NCBI GenBank assembly: GCA_041641295.1
Contig: JBEPYO010000001.1
Location: 1,102,808 to 1,126,807, forward strand
DNA: 24,000 nucleotides
Reading direction: 5' to 3'
Source of the DNA: Nitrososphaerota archaeon
Lineage (GTDB): Archaea > Thermoproteota > Nitrososphaeria_A > Caldarchaeales > Calditenuaceae
This document shows positions 3,470 to 13,844 of the stretch, piece after piece (position 1 is the stretch's first letter; the number at the start of each line of letters is the position of its first letter). Below the pieces are notes generated by a model. It was not told where the DNA came from. It did no database searches and saw only the letters and a list, made by a program, of their open reading frames with translations. The translations under genes and the position numbers were made by a program.

Positions 3470-4834
3470 CTATTTTGAATGGTGTAGCGTCTTGAGTACG
3501 CCGAGGAATTTGAGCCTTATGCTGGTGGGTGGGTTATCTAGTATCTCTGCTATGCTGGGCCTGGTTCTGCCAGAGTCTCCGTGTATGAGTTCCTTAACGT
3601 ATAGTCCGCCGTCAGCTTCAACGTAGAACTCGACCGTGTATGAGTCTATGAGCCTTGACTCTATGTTGAGGATCCTCTTTCTCCTTAACTTCTCTCCCCT
3701 TCTCTTCAGGACTCGGGTGGGTGTTTGCTGCTCTATAACAGCTCCTCTGAGGGAGGCTTCAAGCCTAGCTAGGTCCTCACGGCTCACCGGCTTAGAAAAC
3801 TGGACGGTGGCCATGTAACGCTTGGTAGACCCCTCTATCGCCTCCTTAAGCATCTTTAGGTCGTTGTGTGTGGCGGGCTTAAGTCCCTCAACCTCCACCC
3901 GCCCCTCCGAGTAACTCTTTACCGCCTCTTTCAGGGCTTCGAGGGATACCTTCCTCCTCCGAGGCATTATCAACTCGACTATGAATGGGCGTCCCGTACC
4001 CTCTACTGTCACGTCAACATCCTCTCTCCCAGCGGCATGGAACTTGTATCCAATGGCGCCTGCCAGCCGCATGGCAGGCTCACCAACATACTCGGCCACC
4101 GAGTCCGGATACACTCTTCCGCGGCCTCCGCACCTATCACACCCAGCTCCCCAGCAGGCCGAGCAGTACCAAGGTGTCTGTGGGATGTCTGCCCTGCTCT
4201 TGAAGTAATGACCATAGATGTACAGTGGAGCGGGCTTGGCCTCGGCTGTCCCCGTAAATATGTCGACTAGTATGAGCATCTCAGGTGAGGTGAAGTTGGC
4301 CGGCTTCCCCAGCGCCACCTCCAGCTTCTTCCCCACCTCTCTCGCAACCTCTTTCCTCAGAGTCTCCGACTCGGTGAGACCGAACTCCGAGAATATCCGC
4401 TCCTCGATCGCGGCTATGTATTTGGGTACATATGCGCCGACAAGGAAGTCCTCAAACTCATAGCCTGAGACCTTCCTGACCGCCTCTGCCACGACTGTCT
4501 CGACCACCTCGTCTGTAAGCCTGTCTAAGCAGATTGGACATGTTTTCTTCTCGACCTCTAGTCCTCGGCCAAGCGCGACATCCAGCGCCGGCCCATACCC
4601 TGACTCTGATAGGGCTTTAACAAGAGTCTCGGCTTCTTCTGGGTTCTGGTCTAGCAGGGAGCGAGCCTCCTCCAAGAGCGCCGCCTTAATATCTTCACCT
4701 GTGTTGAGAAGTTCGGAGCTGGGCCGGTTTGAGGATAGGAGCCTACCTAGACATTTGCTGCAAAGCCGGTATTTTAGAAGGATCTGCTTAGCCTTTGAGA
4801 GCGTCTCGTTCAAATTCTTTACGCCCCAGCCCAA
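3470..4834 (-). CDS. pus10: tRNA pseudouridine(54/55) synthase Pus10
   Basis: N-terminal Zn-ribbon cysteines (CSKC, CPIC), a second Cys cluster YCSACWGAGCDRCGGRGRVY, catalytic block AAGREDVDV...GTGRPFIVEL, and C-terminal GGLYVKELIHGDSGRTRPSIAEIL. The start is TTG at 4834; an alternative TTG lies at 4813. Either overlaps the srp54 stop. Confidence 0.88.
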   Translation of the reverse strand: MGWGVKNLNETLSKAKQILLKYRLCSKCLGRLLSSNRPSSELLNTGEDIKAALLEEARSLLDQNPEEAETLVKALSESGYGPALDVALGRGLEVEKKTCPICLDRLTDEVVETVVAEAVRKVSGYEFEDFLVGAYVPKYIAAIEERIFSEFGLTESETLRKEVAREVGKKLEVALGKPANFTSPEMLILVDIFTGTAEAKPAPLYIYGHYFKSRADIPQTPWYCSACWGAGCDRCGGRGRVYPDSVAEYVGEPAMRLAGAIGYKFHAAGREDVDVTVEGTGRPFIVELIMPRRRKVSLEALKEAVKSYSEGRVEVEGLKPATHNDLKMLKEAIEGSTKRYMATVQFSKPVSREDLARLEASLRGAVIEQQTPTRVLKRRGEKLRRKRILNIESRLIDSYTVEFYVEADGGLYVKELIHGDSGRTRPSIAEILDNPPTSIRLKFLGVLKTLHHSK

Positions 4835-7589: not shown

Positions 7590-7630
7590 ACACCTACCAC
7601 TGCGAAATCTTGGGCAAATCTCTGGGTAGG

Positions 7631-7650
7631 CCTGGGGTATCTGAGTCCTT
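7631..7650. repeat. Direct repeat copy 2, CCTGGGGTATCTGAGTCCTT (candidate attR)
   Basis: 19 of 20 nt identical to 6311-6330. Lies 42 nt outside the start of the integrase pseudogene. Confidence 0.6.
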
Positions 7651-7668
7651 CTCTAGGGGACCCTCTGC

Positions 7669-8901
7669 CTATCTCGCTTTTACTGGGATCTTCCTCTCAG
7701 GCATCGCTGGCGGTTTGAGCAAGAGGTTTGAGACGGCTAGACCGAGGACGCTGAGAGCAGCTACTGTCATGAAGACTGGTGAATAGTGTCCAAGTAGTTC
7801 CCATAGGGATGCCGACAGTGTTGGGCCGGCTAGTGCTGAGGCGCCATAGGCTGTGAAGACGATCCCATAGTTTACCGACAGGTTTTGTATGCCGAAGAAG
7901 AGTGATGTGGCTTTGGGTGCTAGGGCGAGCCATCCGCCGAAGACGAGCCAGAGAATCGAGTAGGAGATGAGATAGATGGGGAGAGTGCTTGCCTGTGTCG
8001 CCAGCAGAGCCGCCACTATGGACAGTAGGAAGGATATGCTTGAGACGATGTTTATCTTCATCCTGTCGGCGAGGTATCCGAACAAGGGCCTCCCAAGCCC
8101 GTTGAATACCGCAAAGACTCCTGTGGCCGCAGCTGCCAGCTCAGGGCTTAGCCTAACAACCTCCTGCCCAAACTTGGCCGCTTGGCTTATCGCAATAAAT
8201 CCTCCCAGAGTTCCTAGCGCGTATGCGAGCCAGAGTCCCACAAAACTGCTCGTCCTCACCATTATGCCCGGTGTGAACTCTCTCGGCCCTACCGGCTGCT
8301 GTGTGCTGCCTCTCATCTGACCCCCACCCGTCTCGACCCTCGGAAGCATCATCAGTGGCGAGAGTGCTAGAAGTATGAGCCCATAGACTCCTCCAAGTAT
8401 GATGAATGAGTTCTTCACACCTTGGCTGGCTATCAGATAATTCGCGAGTGGGGCTGTTACGAGGGGTGAGATGCCGAAGCCCAAGACAGTCAAGCCTACC
8501 GCCAACCCTCTTCTCTCAGGGATCCAGTGGCTCGATACAGTGATCGTCGAGTTATAAATCAGCGCAACCCCAGACCCCGCCATGACACCATAGAAGAGAA
8601 TGACGTACAGCAACGGTGATTGCGTCTCCAGAGCAAAACCGGATAAAATCCAACCTCCACCCACTAGCAGTGCACCCAACAACGCGACACGCCTCGAACT
8701 ATAGGCCCTCAAAACCCTTCCACCAAGCGGCATGCAGGCCGCAAAGAAAAGGAGAAAGATAGAGAATGGTATGCCTGACTCGAAACTACCCCATCCGAGA
8801 AGAACCTCGAGTGGCTTCCTAAAGACACTCCAGCTATATATCGTCCCCAAAAGCAGATTGGCAACAAGACCCGCAAAGACGTAGACCCACCTATTCACCA
8901 T
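7669..8901 (-). CDS. MFS transporter, oxalate/formate-antiporter-like (OFA) family
   Basis: 410 aa, about 12 hydrophobic segments. OFA-like N-terminus NRWVYVFAGLVANLLLGTIYSWSVFRKPLE. MFS motif-A-like loops GGRVLRAYSSRRV and GYLADRMKINIV occur in the two halves. Confidence 0.8.
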   Translation of the reverse strand: MVNRWVYVFAGLVANLLLGTIYSWSVFRKPLEVLLGWGSFESGIPFSIFLLFFAACMPLGGRVLRAYSSRRVALLGALLVGGGWILSGFALETQSPLLYVILFYGVMAGSGVALIYNSTITVSSHWIPERRGLAVGLTVLGFGISPLVTAPLANYLIASQGVKNSFIILGGVYGLILLALSPLMMLPRVETGGGQMRGSTQQPVGPREFTPGIMVRTSSFVGLWLAYALGTLGGFIAISQAAKFGQEVVRLSPELAAAATGVFAVFNGLGRPLFGYLADRMKINIVSSISFLLSIVAALLATQASTLPIYLISYSILWLVFGGWLALAPKATSLFFGIQNLSVNYGIVFTAYGASALAGPTLSASLWELLGHYSPVFMTVAALSVLGLAVSNLLLKPPAMPERKIPVKAR

Positions 8902-9253
8902 TCGAGAACACCAGAACTTGTTGGCTGTAGTTTATATTTTAACTGTCTTTAAAAAATGCATACTATACTATAACCATGAATAATAAATAATGAAGATGAA
9001 TACGATGCATCTCTTCCCAAAGATATGTTCTCAATCAGCAAAATGGTCAGCTTGAGATGACTTTTAAACAGTGTTAAGGAGTGGCTAACGGGGAAACCAT
9101 CTGAATGTCCGCTTCAAATTGTGTGTGAGGCAGTGGTTAGACGCGGAGAGGGTTCTGTGAGCGGTTCCCCGCTCCTCCGGCCCAGAATCCCACTCAATTT
9201 GGATAATAACGGCGATAATAGGCCCTCTCACTTTCACCTAAGTCTACCAAAAG

Positions 9254-9262
9254 AAATATAAA
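9254..9262 (+). promoter_or_regulatory. TATA-like box (AAATATAAA) upstream of the LAGLIDADG locus
   Basis: The only strong TATA-like element in the + orientation before 9445. It would give a ~160-nt leader containing the GC-rich hairpin region. Confidence 0.3.
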
Positions 9263-9444
9263 CCATTCATATACGAACACGGCAATAGGTGTGATTAATT
9301 GAGTAGCAGCAACCACATATTATTGGTCCACACAGGATATCTTACTTACGCCGGAAAGTTGAAGGCTCTCCGGCAGGGGGAATCATTACACCTGCCGGGG
9401 AGTTGCGCCACCTTTAGAGAAACCGGGAGCCTCCCGGAAAGGCC

Positions 9445-10683
9445 ATGTCACGGGATGTGGCATCTAGGGTTCCCCAGCAGATTGCTGAGGCGGCTTGCTC
9501 CTTGGTCGCTACACCTATAGTTGGGCAGGGGGCGGGCGGAGGTCTGCAGCTGTCTCCATCCGATAAGGCCACTTGGCTGCAGGGGGAAGGTGGGGTAAAG
9601 AAAACTCAGCGAAGACTAACACTAGAGGAGAAGGCTAAAGTCTTAGAAGCCATTAAAATTGGAGTTGAGAGGGGCTATGGGTACGGACGGATTTGGAAGA
9701 CGTTGAAGGCGAGTGGGATGGATGTATCGAAGAGGACTGTCGAGTACTGGTATTACAAGAAATATCGGGGAAAGGTTGGAAGAAGAGGAGAATATCTCCC
9801 AAGAGAGCTGAGAATCAGGTTATATGAAGAAGCCCTGAAGATGAGAAAGGCAGGTCTTGGATACAAGAGGATTAGGAAGAGGATTGAAGAGCTGCATGGA
9901 GTCAAGCTTAGTCCTGCCGTGATTGCTGACTGGTGCAGTGGAGCACACAGCCCATACAACGGTGCAAGGATCCCCACGATAGACCATCTAAAACCATCCC
10001 CGGAGCTCGCCTACGTAATAGGCGTGGTCGCCGGTGATGGGTGGGCGGTCAAAACCAACGCAAGGAGTGGAGAGTATAGGGTCGGAGCTAGGGCAAAGGA
10101 CATTGAATTCATAGAGGAGTTCGCGAGATGCTTGGGAAAAGTTCTCGGCAGAGAGCCGCCGAGGCCGGTACCAGTGGAAGATGGGTTGCTTTTAGTATAT
10201 GTTAGATCGAGGGCGCTGTACCAACTTTTACAGAAACCCATAGACATAGACAGGATAAGACGCTTCATAGAGCACTGCGAAGACTGCAAAAGAAGTTTTC
10301 TTAGAGGATTCTATGATAGCGAGGGATCTGTAGATAATGAGGGGAAGATTCGCTGCTTAAATACAGATACTAGACTTCTCAGATATGTACAGAAACTTCT
10401 GAAGCTTCTAGGCATAGAGACAACAGGGCCAAAAATCAGTGCGAGGAAGGGAACCCTCCTATTCGACAAAAAGTTGGGGGAGGCATACAAAAAGAGAAAG
10501 AATGTATACTACATCTATGTCAAAGCGCGGGATAAATTGAAATTCTACAAACTAGTAGGGTTCACCATAAGGCGAAAGCAACAACGCCTCGAAGAATATG
10601 TAAGATGTCACGGACTTCTAGAGGACGAGCCACCCAACCAACTCTTCCCCAATTCTCTCTTCCATTCAATTCGCTCACATTAA
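9445..10683 (+). CDS. Free-standing double-motif LAGLIDADG (I-DmoI-like) homing-endonuclease homologue with two N-terminal helix-turn-helix modules
   Basis: Motif 1 LAYVIGVVAGDGW and motif 2 FLRGFYDSEGSV keep both acidic catalytic positions (D, E). These are preceded by two similar ~50-aa HTH-like modules (LTLEEKAKVLEAIKIGVERGYGYGRIWKTL... and LPRELRIRLYEEALKMRKAGLGYKRIRKRI...). The start is uncertain: ATG 9445 opens a GC-rich, low-complexity 50-aa extension. Confidence 0.8.
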   Translation: MSRDVASRVPQQIAEAACSLVATPIVGQGAGGGLQLSPSDKATWLQGEGGVKKTQRRLTLEEKAKVLEAIKIGVERGYGYGRIWKTLKASGMDVSKRTVEYWYYKKYRGKVGRRGEYLPRELRIRLYEEALKMRKAGLGYKRIRKRIEELHGVKLSPAVIADWCSGAHSPYNGARIPTIDHLKPSPELAYVIGVVAGDGWAVKTNARSGEYRVGARAKDIEFIEEFARCLGKVLGREPPRPVPVEDGLLLVYVRSRALYQLLQKPIDIDRIRRFIEHCEDCKRSFLRGFYDSEGSVDNEGKIRCLNTDTRLLRYVQKLLKLLGIETTGPKISARKGTLLFDKKLGEAYKKRKNVYYIYVKARDKLKFYKLVGFTIRRKQQRLEEYVRCHGLLEDEPPNQLFPNSLFHSIRSH

Positions 10684-10686
10684 CAG

Positions 10687-10779
10687 TGGGCCCGGAGGGA
10701 TTCGAACCCTCGACCTTCCGGTCTCTCCCGCCATACCTGTTATCAGCCGGACGCTCCAGCCAGGCTGAGCTACGGGCCC
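10687..10779 (-). tRNA. tRNA-Ile(GAU): tRNA-Ile (anticodon GAU) with an 18-nt intron at the canonical 37/38 position; CCA not encoded
   Basis: Hand-folded cloverleaf: acceptor GGGCCCG/CGGGCCC, D arm GCTC-AGCCTGGCTG-GAGC, anticodon stem TCCGG/CCGGA with loop CTGATA[intron]A, variable AGGTC, T arm GAGGG-TTCGAAT-CCCTC, discriminator A. 75 nt mature plus 18 nt intron. Confidence 0.9.
10723..10740 (-). other. tRNA intron (ACAGGTATGGCGGGAGAG) after position 37
   Basis: This insertion interrupts an otherwise perfect anticodon stem-loop. The boundary is ambiguous by 1 nt because of flanking A residues. Confidence 0.8.
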
Positions 10780-10804
10780 CTACGATATCCCACGTAATAT
10801 GGGC

Positions 10805-10822
10805 GCTATTTAGTATTTAATT
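10805..10822 (-). promoter_or_regulatory. TATA region (TTAAATACTAAATAGC) upstream of tRNA-Ile
   Basis: AT-rich box 26-43 nt upstream of the tRNA 5' end at 10779. Confidence 0.35.
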
Positions 10823-11040
10823 TCTTTGTCCTTGAAGTAGATCTGCCCTAGATTGCGGCCTTCTTGGGTTCTCTGCTGGAAATTTACTGTTATGGGATGA
10901 CTTGGGGGGAGGCTGGTTATTTGATTTGATGCGAGATGAATAGGTGGGTTCTGAAGGAAAGTGGAGGATTGGCAAACCAATGTTTTTTACAATGGCATTT
11001 GCCTTATCTCTGGGTGCCGGTCTTCAGGCTGGCGACGAGG

Positions 11041-11054
11041 TTAATACATATAGG
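11041..11054 (+). promoter_or_regulatory. TATA region (TTAATACATATAGG) for meaB and the mutase large subunit
   Basis: Lies 14-27 nt before ATG 11068. Confidence 0.4.
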
Positions 11055-11067
11055 ATAAAGAGTAGGC

Positions 11068-12033
11068 ATGTTTTTGCGGGAAATGTCTGATGTTGACCGT
11101 CTTGTCGGCGATGTTATAGCTGGAGATACCAGATCGCTTGCAAAGGCTATCAGTATTGTAGAGGCGGGTAGTAGTGAAGCAGGACATATACTGTCAAGGC
11201 TCGCGAAACATGTTAGGGGCAGGCCCGTCATAGGATTCTCCGGGCCACCGGGGTCGGGTAAAAGCACTCTCATAGGCAAATTTGGCGAGTATCTGAAAGG
11301 TAATGGTTTGAAGGTCGCTGTCTTGGCGATAGACCCTTCAAGCCCCTTCACAGGTGGAGCGGTTTTAGGCGATAGGGTTAGGATGGTGTCTATCGCGTCA
11401 GCGCCGGGTGTGTTCATCAGGAGTATGGCTACTCGCGGTGCGAGGGGTGGGGTTGTAGCCTATGTGAGGTCTGTTCTTCGCGTCCTCGATGCAGCTGGTT
11501 TTGACTTTATATTGGTGGAGACCGCAGGTGCTGGACAGACTGATGTATCCATCAACGATGTCGCAGATGTGGTGGCTATAGTTGTTACGCCCGACATGGG
11601 TGATAGCATCCAGGCCATAAAAGCAGGTCTTCTCGAGATAGGAGACGTCTATGTCGTTAACAAGGCGGACGACTCTAGAAGCTCGTATATTGCCTCGATG
11701 CTCGAGGCCATGCTTAGTAGGGGAGGGGCCAAGCCTGTTGTCTTGAAGACGGTTGCAACGAGGGGGGAGGGCGTGGTCGAACTGGCTGAAACATTGTTGA
11801 GGAAATGGGAGCAGCTTAAAACCGACGGCGAACTTCAAGCCAGGAGGAGGCGGCAGACCATCGCAGAGGTTGTGGCCCTAATCATGGAAGACTTTAGAAC
11901 AGCGATAGAGAGATTCTCCTCAGATAAGGAGTTTATAGCGGAGGTTGAGAGGCTGACAGCAGAGGGCCTCGACCCCAAGTCTGTCGCCCGGGAAATGAGG
12001 AGCAGGGTGCTGGAATGGGTGAATAGGCTATAG
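11068..12033 (+). CDS. meaB: Methylmalonyl-CoA mutase accessory GTPase (MeaB/ArgK, G3E family)
   Basis: P-loop GPPGSGKST, DPSSPFTGGAVLGDRVRM, ETAGAGQ, and NKAD. Confidence 0.9.
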   Translation: MFLREMSDVDRLVGDVIAGDTRSLAKAISIVEAGSSEAGHILSRLAKHVRGRPVIGFSGPPGSGKSTLIGKFGEYLKGNGLKVAVLAIDPSSPFTGGAVLGDRVRMVSIASAPGVFIRSMATRGARGGVVAYVRSVLRVLDAAGFDFILVETAGAGQTDVSINDVADVVAIVVTPDMGDSIQAIKAGLLEIGDVYVVNKADDSRSSYIASMLEAMLSRGGAKPVVLKTVATRGEGVVELAETLLRKWEQLKTDGELQARRRRQTIAEVVALIMEDFRTAIERFSSDKEFIAEVERLTAEGLDPKSVAREMRSRVLEWVNRL

Positions 12034-12065
12034 TGTTTATATGCGTCTGAGCAGTATATGGATTC

Positions 12066-13844
12066 GTGGTAGGAATATCTGAGCGCCTCAGCGAGTTTAG
12101 CGCGAGGCGCCTCCCCTACTGGAGGGATAAGCTTGAAGCCCTCAGCAAGAGGCGCCAGGCCTCTCCGATGTATAGGGCTGACTTTTTGGAGAGGCTTGAA
12201 CAGAGTTTTAAGGATTGGAGTAGGCGGTATGCTGAGGCAGCGGCAACCGGTGAGCGGAAGGCATTCTTTAAGACGACCTCAGGGTTTGAGGTCAAGCCCC
12301 TATACACCCCACTCGACGTTAAATGGCTCGACTATGAAAGTGACTTAGGATTTTCTGGCCAGTATCCATTCACACGCGGCGTCTACACCACAATGTATAG
12401 GGGCAAGCTATGGACTATGAGGCAGTTCGCAGGCTTTGGAACACCAGAGGACACTAACAGGCGTTTCCGCTTCCTCTTAGAGCATGGTGAGACCGGGCTA
12501 AGCATCGCCTTCGACACACCCACCCTCTATGGCTACGACCCCGACAACCCGAGATGTGAAGGAGAGGTTGGGAAGTGCGGAGTCTCTGTCGCCACTGTCA
12601 GGGACATGGAGATAATTTTCGATGGGATTCCGCTGGACAAGGTGAGTGTATCGATGACGATAAACGCGCCCGCTGCTGTGCTTTTGGCCATGCTGATAGT
12701 TGTCGCCGAGAAGCAGGGGGTTCCCATGAGGCTGCTCAGGGGGACAACCCAGACAGACATCCTAAAGGAGTTCATAGCACAGAAGGAGTGGGCCTTTACA
12801 CCTGAGGCACATCTCCGCATAATAAGAGACATGATGGAGTTTTGCACCCAGAACATGCCATACTGGCACTACATCAGCATCAGCGGCTACCACATCCGCG
12901 AGGCAGGGGCGACTGCATTGCAGGAACTCGCATTCACACTCATGGATGGATTCACCTACGTCGACCTAGGAGTCAGCTCTGGAATGAGTGTCGACCAGTT
13001 TGCCCCGCGATTCTCATTCTTCTTCAACTCGACGATCAACTTCTTCGAGGAGATAGCGAAGTTCAGGGCGGCGAGGAAGATATGGGCGACGGTTTTGAAG
13101 GAGTTTTACGGCGCGAAAGACCCTAGGTCTATGACGCTCAGGTTCCACACACAGACCTCTGGAGCATCGCTAACATGGCAGCAGCCACTCAACAACATAG
13201 TCAGGACAACTATAGAGGCGCTTGCGGCAGTGCTTGGGGGGACACAGTCGCTACACACAAACTCTTACGATGAGGCTTGGGCCCTTCCCACAGAGGAGGC
13301 GGTCCTCGTGGCTCTCAGAACACAGCAGATAATCGCTGAAGAGACTGGTGTTGCTGACACGATAGACCCGCTCGCTGGATCATACTATGTTGAGTGGCTG
13401 ACTGAGCAGTTGGTGGAGGGCGCGCTGAAGTATTTCGAGAGGATTGACGAGCTTGGGGGAATGCTTGAGGCCATAAAGGCCGGTTACCCCCAGAGGGAGA
13501 TACATGAGTCGGCCTACAGGACCCAGCTGGCCTTCGAGAGGGGAGAGGAGGTGCTGGTTGGCGTCAACAAATACACCATCCCCGACGAAAAGCCGATAAG
13601 GTATCTGGTAGTGGATGAAAAAGTTGTTAAACAGCAGGTTGAGAGGCTTCAGCAAGTGAAGAGGGAGAGAGACAATGAGAAGGTTCGAAAGGCTCTCGAA
13701 AACCTTCGGAGAGCATTTGAGGACGAAAGCGTCAACGTCATGCCCTACATAATAGAAGCAGTCAAGAGCTACGCAACGCTAGAGGAGATAATGAACGTTG
13801 GACGAGAAGTATTCGGGACCTGGAGCGAGCCCGTGATAATCTAG
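12066..13844 (+). CDS. Methylmalonyl-CoA mutase, large (catalytic, substrate-binding) subunit
   Basis: [57 protein letters not shown] and downstream MCM blocks. GTG start. There is no B12 domain, as in split archaeal enzymes. Confidence 0.92.

Follow-up and report, generated by a model that had tools for sequence, protein, structure and literature searches.

The 24,000-nucleotide (nt) stretch of contig JBEPYO010000001.1 analysed here, called the window, belongs to a Nitrososphaerota archaeon of the Calditenuaceae and carries at positions 9445-10683 an open reading frame (ORF) for a LAGLIDADG endonuclease, next to the 3′ end of a convergent transfer RNA (tRNA) gene, tRNA-Ile(GAU). This ORF is probably the single gene of a selfish homing-endonuclease cassette of ~1.67 kb that was inserted at the 3′ terminus of the tRNA-Ile gene and that targets tRNA 3′ ends. 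As a rule, a homing endonuclease is bound to a single target site within an intron or intein; the family to which this gene belongs docks precisely at the 3′ termini of tRNA genes and has spread recently between different tRNAs. Full-text literature searches found no description of a LAGLIDADG family associated with tRNA ends, and this archaeal family is apparently undescribed so far. An earlier reading made by a model from the letters alone (the sequence-only reading) had offered three options for the gene, namely a free-standing, mobile homing endonuclease for which the tRNA 3′ end is a hot spot, a domesticated DNA-binding regulator, and a relic of a transposed intron. The first is upheld by empty sites, multiple copies, recent spread and conserved catalytic residues. 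The second sits badly with a family that is multi-copy, polymorphic and keeps its catalytic residues, and the third is contradicted by the family-wide tRNA pattern.

The comparison of presence and absence at tRNA-Ile, which had been proposed together with these options, was made by searching the region 7600-12100 against 41 related genomes. Four congeners (G005, G007, G004 and G002, the window's own genome being G000) have an empty site, in which an intron-less tRNA-Ile(GAU) comes, 3′ end first, after the upstream flank of a syntenic MFS gene. The match to the MFS flank breaks off near 9016; from there it is 0-30 nt to the tRNA 3′ end in G005, G007 and G004, while ~100 nt of extra sequence lie in between in G002. 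According to this alignment, the extra DNA in G000 corresponds to ~9017-10685, with a left limit lying anywhere between ~9017 and 9041 (about 25 nt). Two further genomes have the site filled. In G003, another member of the family adjoins this tRNA-Ile, with 49% identity over 160 residues up to the contig end, and in G001 the tRNA is adjoined by yet another, compact member, ~48-49% identical to the G000 protein. The tRNA-Ile site has thus been occupied independently in G003 and G001 by unrelated family members. The parts of the locus are listed below in window coordinates.

9017-10685, plus strand: whole inserted cassette, ~1.67 kb, between the upstream flank of the MFS gene and the tRNA-Ile 3′ end, delimited by alignment with the empty sites.
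9017-9344, no strand assigned: left arm of the cassette, non-coding, without a match in the paralogues, in the 41 related genomes or in Rfam.
9345-9444, plus strand: GC-rich conserved leader upstream of the ATG.
9445-10683, plus strand: gene of the endonuclease, with two helix-turn-helix (HTH) modules ahead of the LAGLIDADG core, 412 amino acids from a conserved ATG, as previously read.
10630-10685, plus strand: right-end tail, rich in C/T (CCACCCAACCAA...), that ends with the stop codon and is kept as DNA in the family.
10686/10687-10779, minus strand: tRNA-Ile(GAU), the docking site, located by ARAGORN and Rfam.

With the tRNA 3′ end at 10686/10687, the TAA stop codon is 2-3 nt away, in line with the 3 nt counted in the sequence-only reading. 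A T-arm-like hairpin in the left arm (9157-9183) was considered as an old tRNA remnant and rejected for its wrong orientation and different sequence. A broken or split tRNA-Ile was seen in a further congener, G006 (L091:480-545, C51), at the same locus as that occupied in G000: beside the MeaB gene, the 5′ half of tRNA-Ile(GAU) alone is left, to ~nt 34, followed by unrelated sequence, with the break at the anticodon loop.

The arrangement at tRNA-Ile recurs throughout the family, a regularity that the sequence-only reading did not notice. G000 (1.56 Mb) has five full-length paralogues of 51-63% identity, one of them with an in-frame stop, and one degraded copy; matching pieces number seven at E<=0.01. 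Each full copy is followed by a tRNA on the opposite strand whose 3′ end lies within ~75 nt of the end of the ORF; the set comprises Ile-GAU, Pro-CGG, Arg-UCU, Arg-CCU and His-GUG. Given 48 tRNAs predicted in the genome, the chance of such placement was estimated at ~1e-3 per gene. Upstream of the degraded copy, two weak CRISPR-repeat-like (clustered regularly interspaced short palindromic repeats) Rfam matches (E ~0.9) were noticed (L006:62-88 and 654-692, ~858.5-859.1 kb of G000) and are probably due to chance. A profile-guided scan of other archaea, limited to one genome per species, yielded 80 further loci in Caldarchaeales ('Aigarchaeota'), Nitrososphaerales, Bathyarchaeota and unclassified Thermoproteota, 76 of which have enough flank to be assessed. 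ARAGORN finds a convergent tRNA at 46/76 loci, 30-175 nt (median 82) past the end of the conserved core, a co-directional tRNA at 1/76 and none at 29/76; inspection by eye reveals antisense T-arm and acceptor sequences at ~14 of these 29, in the form of multi-intron tRNAs or orphan 3′ fragments. In addition, the C-terminal tails of several database homologues are antisense tRNA read as protein.

Some individual loci are peculiar. In two of them (L047, ~560-590, and L046, ~3915-3935), the right end of the element is followed by a 14-23-nt tRNA 3′ fragment that holds the acceptor alone or together with the T-arm, after which unrelated DNA begins. The sole co-directional case among the 76 loci (L012:1273-1371, Ca. 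Geocrenenecus dongiae) is a copy adjoining the 5′ end of tRNA-Ser(UGA). An apparent tandem tRNA-Val after copy L100 was discarded as a scaffold-gap artefact, since the second copy runs into undetermined bases (Ns).

This regularity bears on the idea that an endonuclease once encoded in an intron or intein escaped from its host gene, came to lie beside the tRNA by chance and survives as this relic. The nearest solved relatives of the protein (I-DmoI, PI-PfuI and I-Tsp061I) are encoded in introns or inteins, but the same architecture, orientation and junction are found at five G000 tRNAs and at most of the 76 foreign loci, which makes a chance landing very hard to believe. The gene is, moreover, antisense to the tRNA, Pfam detects no Hint (intein) domain in the endonuclease protein, and the upstream flank of the gene is non-coding, with no long ORF. 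These observations agree with the earlier view that the gene has no intron or intein host.

The family is large and its members are probably mobile. It comprises 352 clusters at 50% identity (E<=1e-30) in a library of 1.84 billion proteins. Matching pieces at E<=1e-10, counted in G001 to G005 with G006 and G007 left out, number 58 in G001, 24 in G005, 19 in G003, 4 in G004 and 1 in G002, where it is a pseudogene; internal stops or a position at a contig end are common among them. Such a pattern of invasion, proliferation and decay is that of a selfish element and the opposite of that of a syntenic housekeeping gene, the outcome that the sequence-only reading had set against a mobile gene; four congeners have the site empty, and the load per congener varies from 1 to 58 pieces. 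Within G001, copies located at different tRNAs share 83-93% DNA identity, for example 93% over 880 nt between the copy at tRNA-Ile and that at tRNA-Ala. When eight G001 junctions are aligned, the conserved element (…CCCCTCC.CCCAACCATTTCCC…AATAACTAAT) reaches to 2-4 nt from the discriminator base, and beyond this point each copy has its own tRNA. Near-identical copies at different tRNAs, together with a constant end, indicate that the element moves between tRNA identities and docks at the 3′ terminus. A maximum-likelihood tree of 56 copies, in which the clustering of labels was assessed by 500 shuffles, is consistent with these data. The copies cluster by host genome (35 changes versus 47.1 in shuffles, with 0/500 as low) and show no clustering by which tRNA lies next to them (24 changes versus 23.4, for 29 labelled rows among which related sequences share labels). 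Among these 29 tRNA-labelled rows, 18 different anticodons are represented.

The protein itself has the features of an endonuclease with two additional modules, positioned as follows.

9607-9777, plus strand: HTH module 1, a predicted three-helix bundle.
9778-9957, plus strand: HTH module 2, a predicted three-helix bundle.
10000-10608, plus strand: double-motif LAGLIDADG core, supported by Pfam, the I-DmoI alignment, AlphaFold and Foldseek.

The profile search that had been suggested for the protein gave Pfam LAGLIDADG_3 with E=1e-16 in two matched stretches. The core had been called I-DmoI-like, and I-DmoI is indeed the closest solved relative both by sequence (5ak9, E=1e-4) and by fold, being the top Foldseek match (E=1e-10, template modelling score 0.72 on the target), followed by PI-PfuI and I-Tsp061I and, lower down, by WhiA (3hyi, E=6e-5). 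The motifs VVAGDG and FLRGFYDSEG had been singled out with both acidic residues retained, and in the alignment with I-DmoI the Asp of the former (codon 10036-10038) and the Glu of the latter (codon 10321-10323) fall on its catalytic Asp and Glu. Substitution of these residues on proper alignment would have spoken against an intact enzyme; the catalytic Asp is kept in 56/56 family copies and the catalytic Glu in 54/56, the other two being one Asp substitution and one alignment gap. The AlphaFold model, built on a 77-sequence alignment, has a mean predicted local distance difference test score (pLDDT) of 86.8; in it, a disordered N-terminus leads into two three-helix bundles and then a double alpha/beta core, which has pLDDT >90. 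Two motifs in one chain, a pseudo-dimer fold (alpha-beta-beta-alpha-beta-beta-alpha) and an acidic residue ending each motif are the hallmarks of monomeric double-motif LAGLIDADG proteins, and by its predicted fold, motifs and catalytic residues the core belongs with the monomeric LAGLIDADG homing endonucleases. The endonuclease is apparently active.

The N-terminal third had been described as two mutually similar HTH-like modules, for which a structure prediction was recommended. AlphaFold models both as three-helix modules with pLDDT ~90, at residues 41-87 and 101-146 of the ORF as called in the public protein collection (393 amino acids from a TTG at 9502), ahead of the core. Their similarity escapes BLASTP and is detected at the profile level, where hhalign considers them homologous (probability 94%, E=9e-8). 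Weak Pfam matches in this third were obtained to HTH_21 in module 1 and HTH_32 in module 2; a weak match to an IS3 N-terminal family was also seen. Fold matches of the pair are also weak: the best Foldseek match is Pax6 (E=0.15), Tc3, Mos1, SETMAR and TnsB have Z scores of 5-6, and VIA-align gives Z <=6.7, the regions matched being bipartite transposase and paired-domain HTH regions. Assignment to a specific fold class was dropped in view of these weak and generic HTH matches from Foldseek and VIA-align, and on the model the pair is best described as a generic tandem HTH. Databases carry the HTH and LAGLIDADG architecture generically as 'LAGLIDADG family homing endonuclease', and no published description of it was found in full-text literature searches.

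The faint resemblance of the HTH modules to transposase DNA-binding domains is one of the points in favour of a different kind of mobility, in which the endonuclease gene would be a passenger and the cassette would be moved by a site-specific recombinase, of the host or of an element, or through general recombination among tRNA genes, the tRNA 3′ end serving as attachment site. tRNA 3′ ends are classic integrase attachment sites, used by archaeal integrative plasmids and viruses, and some element ends bear orphan tRNA 3′ fragments (L047, L046). However, the cassette contains one ORF only and lacks an integrase, neither direct attachment-site repeats nor terminal inverted repeats were found at the tRNA-Ile locus, and in hundreds of copies the one gene that is conserved is that of the nuclease, catalytic residues included. 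Transport by a recombinase is judged quite improbable.

The resemblance to WhiA, on the other hand, raises the possibility that the protein is a domesticated and no longer mobile DNA-binding protein that combines LAGLIDADG and HTH parts and regulates or marks tRNA loci. WhiA is among the fold matches, the HTH modules suggest sequence-specific binding, the G000 paralogues are old and mostly intact, and some Nitrososphaerales copies look orthologous, sitting at the same tRNA across genomes. Yet the catalytic Asp and Glu are kept family-wide, unlike in WhiA, and copies that are 93% identical are found at different tRNAs. The empty sites of four congeners and a copy load of 1 to 58 pieces, with many pseudogenes, also argue against regulation: if the gene served to regulate one particular tRNA, sister species could not do without it. 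Domestication is accordingly given little credence, about as little as transport by a recombinase, and a selfish endonuclease cassette is retained as the preferred explanation.

The tRNA gene that serves as docking site differs from its counterparts in the genus. G001-G005 and G007 share an identical intron-less tRNA-Ile(GAU) with the T-stem GTGGG/CCCAC, whether the site is empty or occupied. G000, alone among the seven genus genomes, has a compensatory T-stem swap (GAGGG/CCCTC) and an intron, with an unchanged 5′ half:

10722-10739, minus strand: 18-nt intron in tRNA-Ile near position 38/39, lacking in the six congeners whose tRNA-Ile is intact.

Two of its stretches, ATGGCGGGA and GGGAGAG, recur in the tRNA-Ile intron of G011, a genome of a different genus that has no endonuclease gene at that place. 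Taken together, these sequence differences make a link between the arrival of the cassette and co-conversion of the 3′ part of the tRNA, or a cassette carrying a tRNA 3′ segment, suggestive. Most occupied tRNAs in G001 are without introns. In its intron mode, ARAGORN also predicts in G000 a tRNA-Met(CAU) with a 2.1 kb interruption (446685-448875) and a tRNA-Ser(GCU) with a 298 nt interruption (1318313-1318711); both may be spurious or disrupted, and no family member is located there.

As to the mechanism, we infer that the enzyme recognises a feature common to tRNA genes. No common sequence exists downstream of the empty tRNA-Ile genes, so that the recognised feature must lie in the tRNA gene itself; T-arm and acceptor DNA would be the simplest and most obvious candidate, possibly read by the HTH pair. 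The nuclease would then cut at the 3′ boundary of unoccupied tRNA genes, and the break would be repaired from an occupied tRNA gene, the tRNA sequence acting as homology arm and the cassette being copied in (homing, or ectopic homing between tRNAs). Such repair could co-convert the 3′ part of the tRNA and would thereby produce the intron and T-stem swap found in G000 only. Lying outside the mature tRNA, the cassette would be harmless to its host.

Several observations weigh against this scheme or against the selfish cassette as such. The targeting mechanism is deduced, and the lack of shared sequence in the flanks downstream of the empty tRNA-Ile genes leaves repair of the far side of the break without explanation. 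At ~13/76 loci, neither ARAGORN nor inspection by eye finds a tRNA at the element end. The age of the G000 paralogues, with their 51-63% identity, does not indicate recent movement in G000 itself. No close relatives that could be vectors were found on viral contigs, the matches in IMG/VR being distant, core-only LAGLIDADG sequences of 23-31% identity. No stranded old tRNA 3′ half was detected at the left junction, either by a repeat search or by Rfam at a permissive threshold over 8900-9650. The T-stem difference amounts to one compensatory pair, and the idea that tRNA-Ile is a chimera with another G000 tRNA was abandoned because no exact donor was found, several tRNAs sharing the acceptor and the GAGGG T-stem. 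Lastly, introns occur in 3/5 of the G000 tRNAs adjacent to endonuclease genes versus ~13/43 of the others, which is not a clear enrichment.

For this family, the 3′ boundary of tRNA genes in general seems to be a safe harbour, with at least 18 anticodons occupied over the loci analysed. If this is true, it represents a new targeting logic for a LAGLIDADG enzyme, analogous to the targeting of tRNA genes by eukaryotic retrotransposons and by integrases. It is also a candidate and testable source for the long-debated gain of introns and disruption of tRNA genes in archaea, and thermostable enzymes recognising a conserved feature of tRNA genes could serve as reagents. A bolder version, to which we lend rather limited belief, is that of a nuclease-driven 'tRNA-gene transposon', whose bipartite HTH would read the universal T-arm box and whose nuclease would cut the 3′ boundary, so that any tRNA gene could be colonised, and in which the swapping of tRNA 3′ parts would be one of the chief ways by which Caldarchaeales and their relatives acquired non-canonical tRNA introns, chimeric tRNAs and tRNA fragments.

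Comparison with known systems places the G000 enzyme apart from each of them. I-DmoI has the same core fold and domain order, both catalytic acidic residues align, and it is likewise archaeal and thermophilic; it is, however, encoded in the 23S ribosomal RNA intron of Desulfurococcus mobilis and has no extra DNA-binding domain, whereas the G000 enzyme is free-standing, has two N-terminal HTH modules and belongs to genes found beside tRNAs of many identities. WhiA, a bacterial transcription factor of degenerate LAGLIDADG type, also combines a LAGLIDADG scaffold with an HTH, but it has lost the catalytic residues, its HTH is C-terminal and its gene is single-copy and conserved, in contrast to the catalytic residues, N-terminal HTH modules and multi-copy, polymorphic state seen here. 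Tc1/mariner-type transposases and Pax paired domains share two tandem three-helix HTH modules with a linker, but the transposases have a DDE domain that the G000 enzyme lacks; the HTH fold scores being within the range of common helical arrangements, a relationship with transposases or Pax proteins is not established.

For function, closer parallels are found in phages. Free-standing phage endonucleases include T4 SegB, located in a tRNA gene cluster, and F-CphI, beside the cyanophage psbA gene and known for 'collaborative homing'; in both cases the endonuclease gene adjoins its target gene and flanking markers are co-converted. With F-CphI, the neighbouring target gene contains an ORF-less intron, as does tRNA-Ile in G000. 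These enzymes differ in being of the GIY-YIG or HNH types, phage-borne and confined to one locus each, while the present family is of the LAGLIDADG type, resides in archaeal chromosomes, occupies up to dozens of tRNA genes and has a precise junction at the 3′ terminus. By analogy, SegB and F-CphI, together with the integrases and retrotransposons that target tRNA genes, may be regarded as the nearest functional counterparts. SegB appears in PMC13096335.

A small, multi-copy 'a+b' insertion element of 1.87 kb has been described at tRNA-Thr in Caldiarchaeum subterraneum (Sugahara et al. 2012, PMC3293823), thus in the same archaeal order, and is likewise tied to tRNA genes, tRNA fragments and intron gain. 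Its b4 ORF was located in C. subterraneum's composite genome (G024) by tRNA-Thr(CGU) (503441-503516), at the position given in PMC3293823, and the 'b' ORF corresponds to a 287-amino-acid frame at 503729-504589 (L106:3227-4090, minus strand). C. subterraneum has seven strong homologues of this ORF, as PMC3293823 states, and two weak ones. The 'b' ORF has no Pfam match, gives an hhalign probability of 0.7% versus the LAGLIDADG family and, unlike the gene studied here, is on the same strand as the tRNA; a profile search of the genome finds no LAGLIDADG family member at the a3b4 site. Homology with the Sugahara element was therefore rejected (hhalign probability <1%, no family member at the site), and in the absence of any detectable relation of its 'b' ORF the element is an analogue and not a relative. 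It stands as a second uncharacterised multi-copy element associated with tRNAs in the same order. C. subterraneum also has two full members of the LAGLIDADG family, one of them convergent with tRNA-Gly(UCC).

The ends of the cassette show conservation of their own. The leader, conserved in copies of several genomes, is 70-86% identical at the nucleotide level to six others (those of L002, L008, L011, L013, L017 and L045) and could form a long, imperfect hairpin that ends immediately ahead of the ATG. RNAalifold detects two covarying pairs among six sequences, which was judged too thin for a structured RNA, and Rfam has no match. On the right, the C-rich tract (CCACCCAACCAA / CCCCTCCACCCAACCATTTCCC) found at 10630-10685 is present in L009, L013, L029, L047 and the G001 copies. 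This motif is translated here (…EPPNQLFPNS…) and untranslated behind an early stop in other copies; being kept in either case, the tail would act at the DNA or RNA level. On the tRNA-sense strand, the tract corresponds to G-runs 30-70 nt downstream of the tRNA.

As regards the start of the ORF, ATG 9445 is invariant across six related copies, with an in-frame 3-nt indel just after it; these two features make it probable that 9445, and not the TTG of the public call, is the true start. Residues 1-50 of the ORF show no conservation and are disordered in the AlphaFold model. The base composition had been described as AT- and purine-rich, with 35% GC at 10501-10560. The local value is exact (0.35), but the ORF as a whole, with a GC content of 0.484 versus a genome mean of 0.525 (13th percentile, ~1 standard deviation below the mean), is unremarkable, and low GC as a sign of foreign origin was dropped for this reason. 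The purine richness is real, the coding-strand purine content of 0.60 placing the ORF in the top 0.4% of genome windows.

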